NCBI GenBank assembly: GCA_030754595.1
Contig: JASLZZ010000014.1
Span: forward strand, 1 to 19,297
Reading direction: 5' to 3'
From: Nitrospinota bacterium
GTDB taxonomy: Bacteria > UBA8248
DNA: 19,297 nt
Shown: one piece after another, positions 9,001 to 15,000 of the stretch
Numbering within the stretch: position 1 is the first letter of the stretch
How the letters are laid out: each line of letters opens with the position of its first letter
Made by a program: the position numbers

Positions 9001-12000
9001 GGATACGGGAGTCCCGTGCGGACGTGCGGATCGAGTCCGTCCCGGGGGCCTATCACCACGTCCACCTGGACGCCCCGGAGATTTTTCTGAGTTTGACCCA
9101 GGATTTCTTTTCTTCCATCCTTTATTGACCGGCCGGTCTGTGGCAATCTGATTGGAGACGGCCCGAATCTCATAGCGAACCGGTGAGGCACAGATGGCGG
9201 ACACCCCAAATACAACGGAAACCACCGAGGCGGACTGGTCCGTCTCCGAGGCCGAGTCCGCCACGGCGAACCAGGCGAGCGCCAAGCTGGGTAAGGAGGA
9301 GGACGACAAGGGCGAATTTCTGCTCAACCTTCTCTCGTCCTATTCGAGGCACCGGCTTCTTCCCCTCACCGAGCTCCCGCGCGAGGGCCTGATCCACGCC
9401 TTTCTCGGGGGAGGCATTCACGAACCGCGCGTGATGACCTTCTATCTCTCCGAGGAGCAGGTTTCGCGCCTCACCTCCCTGATGGCTGTGCCCGTCAGCA
9501 AAAACTACGAGAGCGTCACCCTCGACAACCTCAACGAGGTCACCTCCAATCCTCCCCACATGCTTTTGGTCCACATGGAGAATTCGGGCGGAGACGAAGC
9601 GGAAAAGGTCGTCGGCAAGCAGATGTAGGTCCCCACGATGGGATTTTCATCCGTCGTCGCCCTCGTCAAGGACGAATCCTCGCACTACCTCCAGGCGGGC
9701 CCCTCCTGGGCCCAGACCGTTCTGCCGCTGAGCCTGATGGACCAGGCGTTCCGCCGGCACCTGAAAAACCTTCTCGACCTGGCCCACGCGCGCATGGATC
9801 TCGAGACGATTTATCTGGCCCACCGCGTCAGCCGCGAGCAGCTTCACGCCGTGCAGTACACCGATCCGCTCACGGGGCTGTTGAACCGAAGGGGATTCGA
9901 GGACTCCGGGGCGCGCGAACTCTCCCGGACCGCCCGGACGGGCCAAACGATGGGTTTCGTGATCCTCGACATCGACAAGTTCAAGAACATCAACGACACC
10001 TACGGCCATCCGGCCGGGGACGATGTGCTCCGCGAACTGGCGCAAATTCTCCGCGAGCAGACGCGGACACTGGACCACGTATTCCGGTTCGGCGGCGAGG
10101 AGTTCGGAGTAGTCCTCCCGCACACCCCGCCCGAGGAGATGATCCATGTCTGCGAGAGGATCCGGACAAAGGTCGAGGAGACCCACTTCGCGTCCATGCC
10201 CAAGGCAGGCGCCGTGATGATCAGCATGGGCGCCCTATCCGTGGGCTCTGAAAAACGCCCCAAGCTCGAGAACGTTTACCCCGTCGCCGACGAGCTCCTC
10301 TACCGCGCCAAACAAGAGGGCCGGAACCGGGTCATCTCCGACACCTTCAGATAAATTTCAATCAAACGATCGCCACCGGGCGGACGGGCGATCCCGTTCC
10401 CCCGCGGATTTTCAGCGGAAGCGCAACAAATAGAAATTCGTAGGTCCTCGTCCGGCCCAGTTCCTCGAGGTCGGCGATCTCGAGAAGGTGAATCCCCTTC
10501 TCCACCAGCATGTGAACGTGCACCGGGCTCGCGGGGTCGGGCCTCACTTCGACGCAGTAGGTGTCCGAGCCCACCATCCAGATGCCCCTATCGGAGAGCC
10601 ACTTCGCCCCCTCGAGATTGAGGCCCGGCTGGCCGCTCTTCTGGAAGTAATAGTCCCGCTCGGGCCAGTGCCCGAATTGGCCCGTGCGGACGAGGACGAC
10701 GTCGCCCTCGCCGATCCGCACGCCCTGCGCTCCGGCGGCGGCATCGAGTTCGGCGGGGCCGATGCCGAATCCGCCTTCGAGGACCTCTTTTTTCAGGTGA
10801 GCCGCCACATCGAGGAGCACCCCCCGCTGCACGAAGGGCGCCACCGTCTCGATGCCGTGGGCCTTCATTCCTTCGGTCTTGCTCTGAACGCTCACTGCGT
10901 CGATGCCGCCGTGGAGCTTCAGGTCCTTCGAGTAATGGCTCAGCGCGTCGATGTGTGTCCCGGTGTGACCTGTGCAGAAAATGGCCTCGACGGAGGAGCA
11001 GGCCCCGCCCTCGACCATCCAGTCGCCGTGCTCGCGGTTCAGGGTGAAGCCGTAGGGGGCGTGAAGGGGAACATGGGGCATCCCCGGAAACAGATCGACA
11101 CCCATGTCGAACACCTGGCTGCCGCGGACAAACGAGCAAAGATCTTCGAAATTCATAGCGGACCCCCGATAGGAATGGATGGACGTATTCACCGCTCTGG
11201 AAAAATGGACACTTCCATTCTAGACTTCACCTTACGCCCCGACAATGCGGCAGCCCGCCACCCGCACCCGGCGCCCGGAACCGACGAGAAACCGATTTGA
11301 GCACGATAAGCGCGTTTATCCATCCCGCCGTCCAGACGGTCTCGCTGATCCTCGGTCTCTTCCTTCTGGCGCTGGGACTGCGGATCAGAAAAAGCCGTCA
11401 GTCGGGGGCCCAAACCGCCCGGCTCTCGTCCCTGCACATGCGGCTGGGCCGGTGCTTCACCGCCCTGATCGCGGGGGGTTATCTCATCGGCCCGATCGGG
11501 ATGCGCTACGCGCTGGGCGAACCCGTATTCGCCTCGGCGCACGGTTACTTCGGCACCCTCGCGCTCGCTCTCTTTTTGGGGACCGCCTACCTCGGACGAA
11601 AACTCAGGCTCGCCCCGGACAGTGAGGATTTTCGGCAAATCCACGTTTTTTGCGCCTTCATCGCCGTATTCGTCTCCCTCGCCGTGGCGATTCTGGGGTT
11701 TCAGCTGCTCCCCTGAAGCGGCGAAAACAGGGCATAATACGGTCTCTCCCTTTGCCTCCCCGCCAAAATGATCACCCGCCTACGGAATAAGACCTCGCCT
11801 GGGATGTTCCATAAAAAGAATATCTTCTATCGATTCAAACAAGGGAAACTGACTTTTGAAACCAACAATCCACCGGTTGTCGATACTTTTTGACGATATT
11901 TCCGGGCCTCGCGGGTCCGGCCCTTTGCGGAGGTAAGCAGGTCATGTCTCGACGATTAGTGACGATCTCGTTCGGCGCGCTCCTCGCCCTCTCTCTGTGG

Positions 12001-15000
12001 GCGGCGGCGCCCGCCGATCGGGCCAGCGCCCAAAACCCCTGCGGGGGGGGCAATCCCTGCGCGGCCAAAAACCCGTGCGCTGCGAAGAACCCCTGCGCGG
12101 CCAATCCGTGCGCTGCCAAAAACCCGTGCGGCACTAATCCCTGCGCGGCGAAGAACCCTTGCGGCGGAAACCCCTGCAACCCCTGCGGCGGCGGGGGCGC
12201 GAGCGCCCGTTTCGAAGGTGTGATGATCTCGGGCAAGGTGGCCGGTTACAAGGGCAATTTCCTGAACATCCAATCCGCGAACGGCAAGGTCATTCCTGTC
12301 CACCTTCAAAAGACCACCATCGCCCACATCGGCAACAAAACCGTTGGCGCCAAAACCCTTCGCCGGGGAATGGCGGTGAGCATCTCGACCCAGGCGCGCG
12401 GAAATTACCACAAGGCCAACTTCATATACGCCCGGGCCGGAGGCGGAGGCGGCAACCCGTGCGGCGGAAATCCCTGCGCAGCGAAAAATCCTTGCGGCGG
12501 GAAAAATCGCTGTGGCGGGAACCCCTGCGCAGCCAAAAACCCCTGCGCAAAGAGAAAATAGTAAGCCGCTTGAGCGGCGATTCCTTTCTCGGGAATGTTG
12601 TTTTTATATAATCGGAGACCAAAAAAATACGAAAGCTCTGTTCGTTCATTGTAATCGCGCTCACGGCGGCCCTAGCCCTTCCAATGGCGTATTCCGAAGC
12701 TGCCACGCAAATCGCCAAGAAGAAAACCGTTACGCCGCCTCCCTTCTTCTTCACCCAGAAGCGAGACGGATGGGGAAGCTCCATCGCCGTCTCCGTCAAG
12801 CGGGGCAAGAAGGTCTTCCGCGATGTCGGCTGCGTGGGCTGTCACCCCCGTGGCCGCACGGTCGGCGGCACGGCCGTGGACGTCATGGGCAACCGCAACC
12901 CCGTGCCCATCCCGACTCTAATAGGCGCGGCCGAGCACTTCCCGCGCCTGAGCCCGGCCGGCCAGGTCATCAACCTGGGACAGATGAACGACCTCTGTGC
13001 CGCCGTCTTCACCGTCCATCCGCCGATGGACCCCTACTCACAGAAGTACAAAGACCTCGAAGCCTACGTCTCCTCCCTCTCGCCGAAGAAATACAAGCGG
13101 ATGCTGAGTTGGGAGAAAAAGCGCAAGGCCTTGCTAGCGAAAGTGAAGCCCGCCGGAGGCGGCCGCTCCAATCCGTGCAACCCCTGCGGAGGAAACCCCT
13201 GCGCCGCGAACCCCTGCGCGGCAAAGAACCCTTGCGGCGGAAACCCTTGCGCCGCGAAGAATCCTTGTGGCGGAAATCCCTGCGCCGCGAAAAATCCCTG
13301 CGCGGGCAGGAACCCCTGCGCGAGGAAATAGCGCGAGCGCAAATTTTCACGGCGGGAGAATTCCTGTAGCATTCTTCGCCAGCGCATCCATTTCATCGGG
13401 TCTCGCCCGGGCGCGGAAGAAGCCGGGTCCTCTTCCGCGCCCGAGTTTTGCCTGAACCATCGACCGAAAGAGAGGATCAATACGCCATGAGCCGCAACGC
13501 GCTGACACGGACGGGAATCGCGGCCTTCGCACTGGGCCTTCTCGCCGCCTTCTCCGCTCCCGCCCTCGCCGCCCCCGCCAAGCACCCCCGCCGAGCGGAA
13601 TTGAACAAGGGCGACTACTGGCTCGGCAAGGAGATCTACGAGGAGATCTGCTTCTCCTGCCACGGCACCAAAGGCAACGGGCAAGGCCCGAGTTTCAGGT
13701 CCTCCCGCCCCCGGCCCCAAGTGTTCACCAGCTCCTATATGAAGCGCATGACGGACGACTATATTTTCCTAATCGTCAAATTCGGAAAAATAAATGTCCT
13801 GCTCGATAAAACCAAGGGTTTCAAACTCAATGCAACCACCCCGACGGCGATGCCCGCCTTCGGCGAGGTGCTCGAGGACGAACAGATCCGCAAGCTGATC
13901 AAATGGGAGCACGGCCTCACCACCGGCAAAAAAATCAAGGACGAGGAGTCGACCGAGATATTCAAGGACGCATGCTCCCAGTGCCACGGCCTCGCGGGCC
14001 GGGGCGACGGCGAGCGCCCCCGGGGCAGCCAGCCTCTCGGCAAACCCTTCGTGAGCGAGATTCAGCCGCCTCCGATGGACTACACTCTAAAAGAGCAGAT
14101 GGCCCGCTTCGACGACGAATTCCTCTTCACGCTCATCAAGTACGGCCGCCTTGAGGCCACCACCGTCAAAAAATTCGACTACATGAAGGCCTACGGCCAT
14201 GTCCTGAACGACGATGAAATCTGGGGCGTCGTGCGTTATGTGCGCGAGACATTCATCAACGGGAAACCGCGAAAGAAAAAATAGGCGGCCATGAGTACCG
14301 GCGGCGCCAAAGCGGCGATCCTCACAGCGGCAATCCTCGCCTGTCTCCCGGCCACGCCGGGGTGGACGGCCACGCAAAAACCACCAACCGGCGATAAAAT
14401 GGTTTTCGTCGAGGCGGGTTCCTTCATCCAGGGAAGCGAGGACGGCCCGCTTCAGGAGCTTCCCGTCCGGCGAATCCATCTCGACAGCTTCCGGATAGAC
14501 CGCGACGAGGTCTCTGTCAGTGAATGGGAGCGCTTCCGGAGCGCGACTGGCCACCGGCCTTCCAAATACGCTTTCGACTCCGCACTACACCGCCCGCGGC
14601 TTCCCATAACCGGCGTCAGCTGGCACGACGCGTCGGCCTATTGCCGCTGGCGGGGAGCGCGGCTACCCACCGAGGCCGAGTGGGAAAAAGCCGCGCGCGG
14701 ACCGGGCGGGCGGCGCTACCCCTGGTGAGATGCTTTCGACCCCGCCCTCGCGGCCCACGGCGGCCGGGGCGCCCCTCCCCCGGTGGGTGGGAGGCCCGGC
14801 GGCGAGAGCCCCTACGGCGCGCGCGGGATGGCGGGCGACGTCTGGGAGTAGACCCACGACTTCTGGGATGAGTTCTACTACCGCGAGTCCCCGGCGCGGA
14901 ATCCCCAGGGCCCGCCCTCGGGATTTCTCCACACCATCAAGGGCGGCTCCTGGCGCAACGCGCCCGAGATGCTCCGCGCAGCCACCCGCTTTCGCCTCGA

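Follow-up and report, generated by a model that had tools for sequence, protein, structure and literature searches.

An undescribed N-P-C repeat on two exported proteins, one of them a SoxA/TsdA-like cytochrome, in a Nitrospinota bacterium

The stretch analysed here, hereafter the window, comprises 19,297 nucleotides of a Nitrospinota bacterium (assembly GCA_030754595.1, contig JASLZZ010000014.1, positions 1 to 19,297 of the forward strand). It holds a cluster in which a b561-like membrane protein, two adjacent genes with tandem N-P-C units (g00276 and g00277) and a dihaem cytochrome c follow each other, an order that recurs in related genomes. The features, with the evidence for each in brackets, are as follows.

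11297..11716, + strand: DUF4079 / cytochrome b561-like membrane protein, first gene of the cluster (Pfam DUF4079 1.5e-13, Cytochrom_B561 8.4e-7)
11944..12561, + strand: g00276, with signal peptide, N-P-C array, predicted OB-fold core and second N-P-C array (translation, unit positions)
12034..12186, + strand: N-terminal N-P-C array of g00276, 10 units, residues 31-81 (unit positions)
12211..12438, + strand: predicted OB-fold core of g00276, residues about 90-165 (Foldseek)
12454..12546, + strand: C-terminal N-P-C array of g00276, 5 units, residues 171-201 (unit positions)
12627..13331, + strand: g00277 from its probable corrected start, with signal peptide, SoxA/TsdA-like haem domain and N-P-C array (translation)
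12831..12845, + strand: CxxCH haem c attachment motif of g00277, residues 69-73 (sequence reading)
12996..12998, + strand: Cys124 of g00277, putative sixth haem ligand (column kept in at least 90% of 44 sequences)
13170..13319, + strand: C-terminal N-P-C array of g00277, 10 units, residues 182-231 in the 234-aa reading (unit positions)
13487..14284, + strand: dihaem cytochrome c with signal peptide, ATG at 13487 (Pfam Cytochrome_CBB3 2.7e-20, two stretches)
14291..14983, + strand: FGE-sulfatase-like gene (Pfam FGE-sulfatase 7e-31), broken by in-frame TGA (14726) and TAG (14849)

The 15 units of g00276 and the 10 of g00277 were found where a preliminary description of this DNA had placed them. 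The g00276 protein has 205 aa, its signal peptide ends in A-S-A, the first array begins directly after the predicted cut, and 15 of its 16 cysteines lie within N-P-C units that surround a repeat-free core of ~80 residues. In the AlphaFold2 model (25 sequences) residues 90-165 reach a pLDDT of about 95 and most repeat residues stay below 50, and the arrays are predicted to be disordered. The second-ranked Foldseek match of the core, and the best periplasmic one, is CusF (2vb2; TM by target 0.70, rmsd 3.1, E 2.8e-3), while cold-shock and other OB folds match with similar scores. In the alignment of 25 sequences the core has the invariant columns G130, S148, A158 and Y162, the remaining invariant ones lie within the C-terminal repeat, and no Cys, His or Met of the core is conserved; as modelled, the core would be an OB fold without metal ligands. 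The C-terminal array varies in copy number in nature, as contigs of the runs X16 and X19 carry an extra 84 nt, in frame, at 12502-12547, and the ortholog in the relative L001 has 21 units versus 15 in g00276.

The start of g00277 had been suspected of being mis-called, rightly as it seems. The frame is open from 12612, and the called ATG at 12684 would cost the protein its signal peptide; the codon at 12627, nine bases downstream of a GGAG, restores a typical one and is probably the true start. This codon is ATA in the window and ATG in L001 (98% identical), and contigs from marine runs have ATG in two of four runs, the difference lying at 12629. Four cysteines of g00277 are found outside the repeat. 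As for the broken FGE-like gene, tblastn aligns it in one frame with the intact L003 ortholog (70.5% identity over 200 aa), with Gly and Met opposite the in-frame stops, at which the four runs showed no alternative letters.

The preliminary description reported only chance-level cytochrome hits for g00277, and by itself the protein indeed reaches 13.1 bits on the Pfam model PF21342 (SoxA/TsdA cytochrome c) versus a cut-off of 27. This verdict did not hold once its relatives were considered. A phmmer search of 1.84 billion representatives gave 163 matches at E<=1e-3, among them the repeat-free cytochromes P0024 (1.4e-16), P0033 (1.9e-12) and P0040 (4.5e-11), and 44 of 74 scanned relatives, picked by eye from the longer ones of 149 listed matches (nearly all at least 140 aa), matched PF21342 at E<=1e-3. 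A 44-sequence profile headed by g00277 found SoxA 2c1d (5.7e-11), SoxA 1h31 (8.5e-10) and TsdA 4wq7 (9.5e-8), and TsdA was also the best Foldseek match (E 4.3e-3, TM 0.59) of the AlphaFold2 model (pLDDT 88.8). The invariant columns of the 44-sequence alignment are G, C, C, H and P, including the C, C and H of the single CxxCH motif. Among the relatives the column of Cys124 aligns with the Cys of the TsdA motif RIGDC and with the SoxA cysteine of 3oa8, which is Met in entry 3ocd. On the strength of relatives and profiles, g00277 is a divergent SoxA/TsdA-family domain that has kept the haem-ligating cysteine, and we suggest that Cys124 is the equivalent of the SoxA/TsdA active-site cysteine, giving a His/Cys-ligated haem. 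According to passages of PMC4423706, this active-site cysteine forms an S-thiosulfonate intermediate, SoxAX conjugates thiosulfate to a cysteine of the SoxY carrier arm, and an arginine invariant in TsdA and SoxA is the most important residue for thiosulfate kinetics. The corresponding position, four residues before Cys124, is Met in g00277 and in the displayed relatives of the 44-sequence alignment, hence classical thiosulfate chemistry is unlikely for g00277.

Gene context was counted over 78 loci and the window (79 sources); as the loci were gathered with g00277 as query, these statistics lean to SoxA-type loci. Orthologs of the dihaem cytochrome c adjoin repeat genes in 20 sources, a multihaem cytochrome of ~410 aa is found in 17, and the b561-like ortholog lies upstream of a g00276 ortholog in 13, window included. 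Further neighbours were ECF sigma (11), the YeeE/YedE sulfur-transport family (10), TlpA-like proteins (6), thioredoxin (4) and the CcdA/DsbD membrane domain (3); two smaller clusters, each made up of 4 loci, showed an ORF for a zinc-finger anti-sigma factor, and a molybdoenzyme of the MsrP/sulfite-oxidase type in 3 type II loci. No copper, mercury, zinc or cadmium resistance genes were among the annotated families recurring in at least 3 of the 79 sources; the recurring annotated neighbours are thiol-redox and electron-transfer genes, not metal-resistance genes. The dihaem protein, whose best solved relative is 6h5l_B (3.2e-10), is likely the electron partner of g00277.

The repeat is as rare in this genome as had been claimed: a six-frame scan of 138 contigs (3.55 Mb) counted 315 N-P-C in 6.93 million residues (4.5e-5 per residue), and only four frames hold at least three units, namely g00276 (15), g00277 (10), C41:264-728 (11) and C94:1811-2203 (5), while C94:1190-1606 holds two. 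Tandem Repeats Finder reported periods of 15, 18 and 33 nt at 12055-12177, 12468-12549 and 13179-13322, and no two of the six NPCAAK units in g00276 share the same DNA string, which means that the peptide and not the DNA is conserved. In 207 repeat proteins the exact N-P-C context holds 3741 of 4554 (82%) non-haem cysteines, and the repeats consist of A 24, C 20, P 20, N 19 and K 8 percent, with His, Met and acidic residues nearly absent. Doubled units (NPCNPC) give C-x-x-C pairs. The arrays count from 5 to more than 40 units and are often fused to a haem domain. SoxY carries an invariant GGCGG motif, and by analogy we infer from the strictness of the N-P-C flanks that a motif read by an enzyme fits better than a metal sponge.

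We found no Pfam or NCBIfam model of the repeat and no description of the module in the searched literature, so that in this too the preliminary description stands, along with its view of the repeat as real, exported and widespread. In print we came across a tandem N-P-C only in CdeC of Clostridioides difficile, as a 6x repeat (passages of PMC7677010 and PMC6101409). As earlier claimed, g00940 is repeat-only and lies beside a thioredoxin-fold gene; used as query it found 1020 longer proteins, and of the best 120 among these 94 have a haem partner domain (cytochrome P460 in 54, SoxA/TsdA in 40), the others being LysM only (5), YHS (1), YceI (1) and none on record (19). The LysM wall-binding domain accompanies the repeat in 13 P460 proteins and 5 others of these 120. 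The dominant partners are thus two haem families, many small secreted repeat-only proteins adjoin haem proteins, and the N-P-C module is an undescribed one that many bacteria carry on unusual haem proteins.

The MerT-like pair on contig C94 agrees with its earlier account, with tails of 5 and 2 units and with TGA-TGA and TGA-TGC, respectively, in the first membrane helix. All model matches are far under the cut-offs: Pfam MerT 4.8e-5 and 4.1e-5, for the TGA-TGA protein NCBIfam MerTP fusion 8.4e-6 and MerT/CopZ selenoprotein 8.2e-5, and for the TGA-TGC protein NCBIfam MerT 1.1e-4. The TGA codons are plausibly selenocysteine, since the genome has a tRNA-Sec and a strong hairpin follows each TGA. 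From three helices and positive-inside loops the tails should be periplasmic, at the place of MerP/CopZ in the named fusions. A MerR-type regulator (MerR, ZntR and CueR models 1.5e-29 to 3.1e-37, all under cut-offs) and a thioredoxin reductase gene follow the pair; no MerA is present there, the reductase near the pair being the thioredoxin reductase.

Tentatively, and as somewhat short of probable, we favour the explanation that the N-P-C arrays are flexible periplasmic thiolate arms that are oxidised or loaded by a cysteine-ligated haem, much as SoxAX loads the SoxY arm. The b561-like protein, g00276, g00277 and the dihaem cytochrome c would then form one periplasmic thiol/haem redox module, in which the arrays would be disordered, lysine-bearing strings of exposed cysteine thiolates and g00277 would supply a SoxA/TsdA-family haem with a reactive cysteine as sixth ligand. 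Following the SoxA/TsdA precedent, the haem-cysteine pair would take two electrons from a sulfur nucleophile and the bound group would go to a second thiolate by thiol-disulfide exchange; this thiolate may come from the arms, in cis (the g00277 tail) or in trans (g00276, g00940), which would end disulfide-bonded or loaded with a sulfane-type adduct. Electrons might exit through the dihaem cytochrome c, or the path might run in reverse with oxidised arms being reduced. The cargo is probably not thiosulfate, as the thiosulfate-binding arginine is missing.

The likeness to SoxAX/SoxYZ lies in a haem c domain that belongs to the same family and has a putative cysteine ligand to the haem, in periplasmic thioredoxin and CcdA-type genes near some repeat loci, and in chemistry whose end point is the thiolate of a cysteine that small residues flank on a flexible arm (PMC4423706, in part). 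The differences are several, as no SoxY was found in the genome (96.9% complete), no SoxX-type partner was identified and g00277 lacks the invariant active-site arginine. The SoxY arm is moreover one C-terminal GGCGG on an immunoglobulin-like protein, whereas here it is a tandem array. TsdA, the best structural match of g00277, shares with it the aligned active-site cysteine, and the gene directly downstream of g00277 recalls TsdB, the dihaem acceptor of TsdA; however, TsdA has two haem domains and g00277 one, Met stands for TsdA Arg119, and the best solved relative of the downstream protein is not TsdB. Besides the missing arginine, the PF21342 score of g00277 below the cut-off, the lack of SoxY and the lean of the context counts to SoxA-type loci, further observations count against the thiol/haem reading. 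More than half of the repeat proteins with a partner domain have P460 instead of SoxA/TsdA, and sulfur chemistry does not obviously account for these P460 proteins; N-P-C also stands in the place that MerP or CopZ has in known MerT fusions, and on YHS proteins; and in this genome the g00277 start position reads ATA and the FGE-like gene of the neighbourhood is broken.

Since the repeat is found on MerT-like and YHS proteins too (for YHS, P0020 and P0102 pass NCBIfam's model of YHS domain-containing (seleno)proteins), array thiolates may instead capture Hg(II), Cu(I), Cd(II), As(III) or selenium species and hand them to transporters or sequester them, the MerT-like tail playing the part of MerP. 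We consider this rather unlikely. A periplasmic mercury or soft-metal role, if this was what the preliminary description meant, rests on minority partners, with haem domains on 94 of the best 120 against one YHS, and the context counts show no metal-resistance gene among the annotated families that recur in 3 or more of the 79 sources. The regulator and reductase after the MerT-like pair and the C-x-x-C pairs of NPCNPC would suit metal binding, and metallothioneins too have lysines next to cysteines, but a flank as strict as this N-P (82%) is not what metal sponges usually show. Likewise the g00276 core resembles the Cu(I)/Ag(I) chaperone CusF as a small periplasmic OB fold, at only 13-14% identity and without its His/Met/Trp ligands, which the g00276 family has not conserved. 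MerP/MerT, MerTP and the MerT/CopZ selenoprotein (NF033556, NF045683) share with the C94 pair a thiol-bearing periplasmic element on, or working with, a three-helix MerT-type carrier, the paired Cys of helix 1 being TGA-TGA or TGA-TGC in the C94 pair; they differ in having a folded HMA domain with one CxxC in place of a disordered tail, and the C94 pair has weak MerT matches and no MerA.

Less likely still, the arrays may be a sacrificial or rechargeable periplasmic redox buffer that absorbs oxidants or electrophiles (hypochlorite, peroxide or nitrogen oxides which the attached haem produces or encounters) and is then re-reduced, a cysteine counterpart of MrpX. MrpX reportedly has a periplasmic methionine sulfoxide reductase as its partner, with a sigma/anti-sigma pair in control. 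This methionine-rich peptide belongs to the periplasm of Azospira suillum (PMC4436054, in part). Both are small, secreted and of low complexity, rich in one redox-active residue and placed beside periplasmic redox enzymes, in type II loci also near sigma and anti-sigma genes, and the TlpA, thioredoxin, CcdA and molybdoenzyme genes of these loci, the repeat-only proteins beside haem proteins, the reactive intermediates made by P460 and SoxA/TsdA haems alike, and carriers that by record titles include chlorate/perchlorate reducers and denitrifiers are all consistent with a buffer. It leaves unexplained the covalent fusion to particular haem domains and the strict tripeptide context. In contrast to MrpX, the repeat has cysteine in place of methionine, keeps to this tripeptide and is mostly fused to haem domains; no methionine sulfoxide reductase-type partner is conserved and no dedicated reductase universally linked, reducing-pathway genes occurring in about 13 of 78 loci and a thioredoxin-type gene being absent from the window's own cluster. 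The least probable reading, which we hold to be quite unlikely, gives the arrays a structural role: as spacers or through disulfide crosslinks they would tether periplasmic proteins, e.g. to the wall, or polymerise them, on the model of cysteine-rich repeats of spore coats. Yet cysteine is avoided in ordinary linkers, neither secreted proteins that are repeat-only nor free C-terminal tails are linkers, and the association with two specific haem families would go unexplained. CdeC, in passages of PMC7677010 and PMC6101409 a self-assembling cysteine-rich structural exosporium protein, shares the tandem tripeptide, but it is a Gram-positive spore-surface protein with six units among other motifs, outside a signal peptide context and without a haem partner. 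In favour of such a role are the LysM domains that accompany the repeat, the position of arrays between domains, their predicted disorder and the free variation in copy number.

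The preliminary description had placed tandem N-P-C repeats in two adjacent genes, g00276 and g00277, and both are found on the plus strand of the window. It had also counted few N-P-C-rich proteins in this genome, and a scan of the entire assembly (3.55 Mb) in all six frames agrees: N-P-C occurs 315 times in 6.93 million residues, and three or more units are seen in four frames only, namely g00276, g00277, C41:264-728 (11 units) and C94:1811-2203 (5 units), the latter two on other contigs of the genome. This concentration in four frames is not a product of chance. The six NPCAAK units of g00276 are written as six different DNA strings in which the Asn and Pro codons vary, hence it is the peptide that selection acts on, and the array is not a recently slipped DNA repeat. 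Successive N-P-C units stand 5-6 residues apart in 13 of the 14 steps of g00276 and in 8 of the 9 steps of g00277, with a spacing of 3 once in each. As earlier stated, the repeat has no match in either Pfam or NCBIfam, and no paper describing it was found in the literature searched, where CdeC was the sole relevant return. A scan for promoters and terminators around the genes gave matches not above those in shuffled sequence.

11944-12561, plus strand: g00276, 205 aa, signal peptide ending A-S-A
13487-14284: dihaem cytochrome c gene, downstream of g00277

The mature part of g00276 opens directly with 10 units (residues 31-81), followed by an 80-residue repeat-free core and 5 further units, and 15 of its 16 cysteines lie inside N-P-C. 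Only 2 close relatives of the core were returned by a word-index search; an iterative search within the retrieved proteins and loci gave 29 rows, the window's two and 27 others, and N-P-C arrays flank the core in all 25 sequences aligned. For the core a barrel of five strands is predicted with confidence (pLDDT about 95 over residues 90-165), the repeat residues of the same model being mostly under 50, and Foldseek puts the core among the OB folds, of which CusF (TM by target 0.70, E 2.8e-3) is the best periplasmic one. The metal ligands of CusF are His/Met/Met (Trp). The g00276 core is like CusF in fold but lacks this conserved site, as no conserved Cys, His or Met column is present in the 25-sequence alignment, where the invariant residues are G130, S148, A158 and Y162. 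The core looks like a scaffold presenting two arms and not like a metal site. The number of units in the g00276 array drifts freely and varies in natural populations; the ortholog in the relative L001 has 21 units versus 15 in the window. In contigs of the marine metagenome runs X16 and X19 the C-terminal array is longer by 84 nt, in frame (window 12502-12547).

The start of g00277 had earlier been suspected to be mis-called, probably rightly so, as the called ATG at 12684 sits within the apparent signal peptide. The reading frame has no stop from 12612 onwards, and the codon at 12627 follows nine bases after a GGAG. This codon (12627-12629) is ATA in the window and ATG in L001, which is 98% identical. 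In contigs of four marine metagenome runs, position 12629 is G (giving ATG) in X16 and X19 and A in X10 and X17. Because of the signal peptide, the GGAG spacing and the ATG in L001 and two of the four runs, g00277 most likely starts at 12627 and would then encode 234 aa. The ATA of this lineage would be a natural polymorphism of the start codon, or else a weak start or a disabling (dead) variant.

The protein has one CxxCH haem c motif (residues 69-73, 12831-12845) and 10 units at its C-terminal end. The preliminary description reported only chance-level cytochrome hits, which holds for g00277 alone: it scores 13.1 bits (E 0.096) against PF21342, the family of cysteine-ligated SoxA/TsdA cytochromes, under the 27-bit cut-off, and the genome-wide search gave no match to PF21342. 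It does not hold when relatives are used, as these lead to the SoxA/TsdA family. An exhaustive phmmer search with g00277 gave 163 representatives at E<=1e-3, and residues 45-155 matched repeat-free cytochromes (P0024 1.4e-16, P0033 1.9e-12, P0040 4.5e-11; phmmer). We scanned 74 of the 149 listed matches, picked by eye from the longer ones and nearly all of at least 140 aa, and PF21342 was matched by 44 of these at E<=1e-3, the majority scoring above its cut-off. A 44-sequence profile searched against solved structures found SoxA 2c1d (5.7e-11), SoxA 1h31 (8.5e-10) and TsdA 4wq7 (9.5e-8). The AlphaFold2 model of the haem domain has a pLDDT of 88.8; its top seven Foldseek matches are TsdA entries, at a modest E of 4.3e-3 to 9.7e-3 and TM by query of 0.58-0.59, followed by dihaem peroxidase and then SoxA. 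A complex prediction of this domain with the g00276 core (score 0.07, mark 0.32) speaks neither for nor against binding.

In the alignment of 44 sequences headed by the g00277 domain, the C, C and H of CxxCH are invariant along with a G and a P, and Cys124 (12996-12998) is kept in at least 90%. In the family alignment Cys124 falls on the Cys of the TsdA RIGDC motif; it also aligns with the SoxA Cys of 3oa8, which is Met in the otherwise identical entry 3ocd. According to Grabarczyk et al. (PMC4423706), the TsdA Cys ligates the active-site haem and carries an S-thiosulfonate intermediate, SoxAX conjugates thiosulfate to the Cys of the SoxY carrier arm, and TsdA Arg119, four residues before the Cys, does not vary in TsdA and SoxA, has a role in thiosulfate binding and is the residue whose loss is worst for kinetics. 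At the Arg119 position g00277 (QMNDLC) and the displayed proteobacterial relatives (EMVQLC) have Met. As fold and Cys are kept and the Arg is Met, g00277 appears to share the fold and the cysteine-ligated design of SoxA/TsdA while belonging to a branch without the thiosulfate site, with Cys124 as putative haem ligand and catalytic residue. Further, TsdA in its second domain and SoxA with SoxX have a second haem nearby through which electrons can leave. The g00277 polypeptide has none; a separate dihaem cytochrome c gene is located downstream of g00277-type genes in 20 of the 79 sources compared (78 loci and the window).

More than 1000 predicted proteins share the repeat module without a family model or paper found, 1020 longer forms alone at E<=1e-3 with g00940, a repeat-only small secreted protein on contig C41 of this genome, as query. 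Among the best-matching longer proteins the module is mostly paired with two mechanistically unusual haem families: the best 120 of the 1020 comprise 54 with cytochrome P460 (13 also with LysM), 40 with SoxA/TsdA, 5 with LysM only, one each with YHS and YceI, and 19 with no domain on record. Further partners are DM13 (P0105, L078) and the g00276-type core. Each of the 117 newly returned proteins carries at least six units, and the N-terminus is hydrophobic in 105 of them. In the CxxCH-bearing proteins (n=107) arrays are always found N-terminal of the haem motif, in 62 only there and in 45 on both sides. A count over 207 proteins that each have at least six units places 3741 of the 4554 non-haem cysteines (82%) in the exact N-P-C context, and the arrays consist of 24% A, 20% C, 20% P, 19% N and 8% K with His, Met and acidic residues almost absent; it should be noted that these percentages describe the family and not an unbiased sample, since the sets were gathered with repeat-bearing queries. 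We also considered the metallothionein-like criterion of closely spaced Cys (C-x-C, C-x-x-C, C-C) forming metal-thiolate clusters; in P460-type relatives the commonest N-P-C spacing is 3, that is C-x-x-C (994 of 2390 steps). The P460 proteins (P0155, P0157, P0167 and others, some with LysM) reach up to 43 units, mostly as the nine-residue NPCNPCAAK, and have in common a short, conserved C-V-(V/I)-P-R-L stretch inserted between two arrays. Carriers of the repeat include Nitrospinota-like nitrite oxidisers, tubeworm symbionts, denitrifiers and common marine Gammaproteobacteria.

To describe the gene neighbourhoods we scanned one genome per species with g00277, which gave at least 619 matching stretches; 522 were confirmed among those listed and 78 loci were kept. 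Clustering of the neighbours resulted in two layouts. Type I is found in the window and in metagenomic Nitrospinota, Tectomicrobia and 'Deltaproteobacteria' genomes, in the order b561-like DUF4079 (13 sources), g00276 type, g00277 type, dihaem cytochrome c and FGE-sulfatase-like (10 sources). Type II is found in Gamma-, Beta- and Alphaproteobacteria, some of them cultured carriers judging by their record names, and has signal peptide, array, SoxA-like domain and a second array in one chain, often with a small repeat-only protein adjoining. Immediately downstream of the repeat-haem gene, 40 of the 79 sources (e.g. L072:7107-7847) have a gene for a DUF6969 protein that lacks a signal peptide; it is the commonest neighbour in Proteobacteria. 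For DUF6969 we found no solved relative, no informative Atlas neighbour and nothing relevant in the literature searched, and this genome (completeness 96.9%) has none.

Other type II neighbours and the number of sources in which they occur
Multihaem cytochrome, about 410 aa: 17 sources
Secreted protein, about 160 aa, no family: 16 sources
ECF sigma: 11 sources, with zinc-finger anti-sigma ORFs in two clusters of 4
YeeE/YedE sulfur-transport protein: 10 sources
TlpA-like: 6 sources
DUF302: 6 sources
DUF3179: 6 sources
Thioredoxin: 4 sources
CcdA/DsbD membrane domain: 3 sources
Arsenate-reductase-type phosphatase: 3 sources
MsrP/sulfite-oxidase-type molybdoenzyme: 3 sources

The secreted protein of about 160 aa (L070:5248-5745, L021:8113-8574 and 14 other loci) has a conserved T-Q-x-x-C-Q-F and no Pfam or NCBIfam family. 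On C41 (L079), g00940 is followed at 752-1144 by a thioredoxin-fold gene with WCPLC, lacking the usual N-terminal part and a signal peptide; selenocysteine was rejected here, as the motif is an ordinary WCPLC. In the relative L054 a 420-aa multihaem cytochrome follows the g00940 ortholog instead. The stretch of the window is present in 20 DNA runs from 12 seawater or marine studies, nine of which may be the source of the assembly; the listing has no RNA run with it.

Contig C94 (L080) holds two adjacent genes for three-helix MerT-like proteins (1091-2206), with TGA-TGC and TGA-TGA in the first helix at the position of the MerT cysteine pair. The N-P-C tails ascribed to them in earlier work are there, with 2 and 5 units. 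Matches to MerT are weak: 4.8e-5 and 4.1e-5 for Pfam MerT (cut-off 32.9 bits) and 8.4e-6 to 2.6e-4 for NCBIfam MerT-type models, among them a MerTP fusion (8.4e-6) and a MerT/CopZ selenoprotein (8.2e-5), all far under the cut-offs. The TGAs are followed by hairpins of -23 to -31 kcal/mol, and the genome has a tRNA-Sec gene (C102:3896-3992). Downstream of the pair are a MerR-type regulator, a thioredoxin reductase and a ferredoxin. Judged by the positive-inside rule, both tails would face the periplasm, probably the same place as MerP or CopZ in the named MerT fusions. These proteins are the best evidence for a reading in which the arrays capture soft metals or metalloids, in which case they would still represent periplasmic metal-binding sequences of a new and widespread type. 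Such capture is nevertheless rather unlikely in our view, since the g00276 core is devoid of CusF-type ligands and no classical gene for resistance to copper, mercury, zinc or cadmium occurs among the annotated neighbour families recurring in at least 3 sources.

All contexts agree with one property: the arrays would be cationic strings, disordered by prediction, whose thiolates are exposed outside the cytoplasm. The likeliest reading, which we propose tentatively and by analogy, is that the arrays of g00276 and g00277 serve as carrier or substrate arms for thiol or haem chemistry. We favour such arms because the arrays are fused to a SoxA-family haem with its catalytic Cys, because the dihaem cytochrome and the b561-like protein adjoin the two genes, because thiol-redox neighbours are found elsewhere and because the N-P-C flank is strict; as the thiosulfate site is absent, we assign them no cargo. 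SoxY is a domain with a single C-terminal carrier Cys, and any likeness of g00276 and g00277 to it would be in function only: PF13501 has no match anywhere in the 96.9% complete genome, and neither protein has a Pfam SoxY match. Resembling concepts are already known in the SoxY arm, MerP, MrpX and cysteine-rich repeats. An antioxidant buffer that can be recharged, of the MrpX kind (PMC4436054), seems improbable to us, and a structural, disulfide role, as ascribed to CdeC (PMC7677010 and PMC6101409), very improbable. Radical-SAM-crosslinked ribosomal peptide precursors were set aside, given the Sec-type signal peptides ahead of the arrays and the fusion of the arrays to periplasmic haem domains, and so were haem-regulatory Cys-Pro motifs, as the units read Pro-Cys.

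Should the arms prove to be carriers or substrates of these haems, they would represent a new architecture for redox chemistry of sulfur or nitrogen in the periplasm and give a function to a large orphan SoxA-family branch without thiosulfate site. The main fact that arms for thiol or haem chemistry do not yet explain is the P460 fusions, and these motivate a bolder idea, in which the arms would be general traps for electrophiles made by haems. Hence we speculate, with considerable doubt, that the N-P-C array could be a general periplasmic carrier-arm system for haem-made electrophiles and soft ligands. Unusual c-type haems would generate an electrophilic intermediate, either a cysteine-bound sulfur adduct (SoxA/TsdA-like) or a ferric nitrosyl (P460-like), which the fused thiolates would capture as a protein-bound persulfide, thiosulfonate or S-nitrosothiol; selenium or mercury might be handed by the arms to the selenocysteine-bearing MerT-like carriers. 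If true, reactive sulfur and nitrogen species would be kept in a covalent pool tethered to protein, joining the two cycles. The question is directly testable in carriers that, judging by their record names, are cultivable (Stutzerimonas, Zobellella, Marinobacter, Hahella and Amphritea).

Further along the window, the FGE-sulfatase-like gene (14291-14983) has an in-frame TGA at 14726 and a TAG at 14849, while the orthologs of related loci are intact. In the ortholog of L003, which is intact, Gly (TGA) and Met (TAG) stand at the positions of the stops; four runs show the stops unchanged, and the gene is probably a pseudogene in this lineage. Selenocysteine at the TGA was rejected, as it aligns with Gly and the TAG comes after. 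The motif expected for substrates of FGE-like enzymes is C-x-P-x-R; the repeat units contain none and the gene is broken here, and the arrays were set aside as such substrates. Between this gene and a glyoxalase-family gene lies a perfect 4.7-copy tandem of the hexamer CCCTAG (15065-15092). A complete operon for an Mrp-type multisubunit cation/proton antiporter (A/D, B, E and G types by Pfam) occupies 2317-8119, and at the window's end the minus strand encodes, at 18663-19289, a helix-turn-helix protein of transposase-like type (HTH_29, HTH_32, HTH_Tnp).
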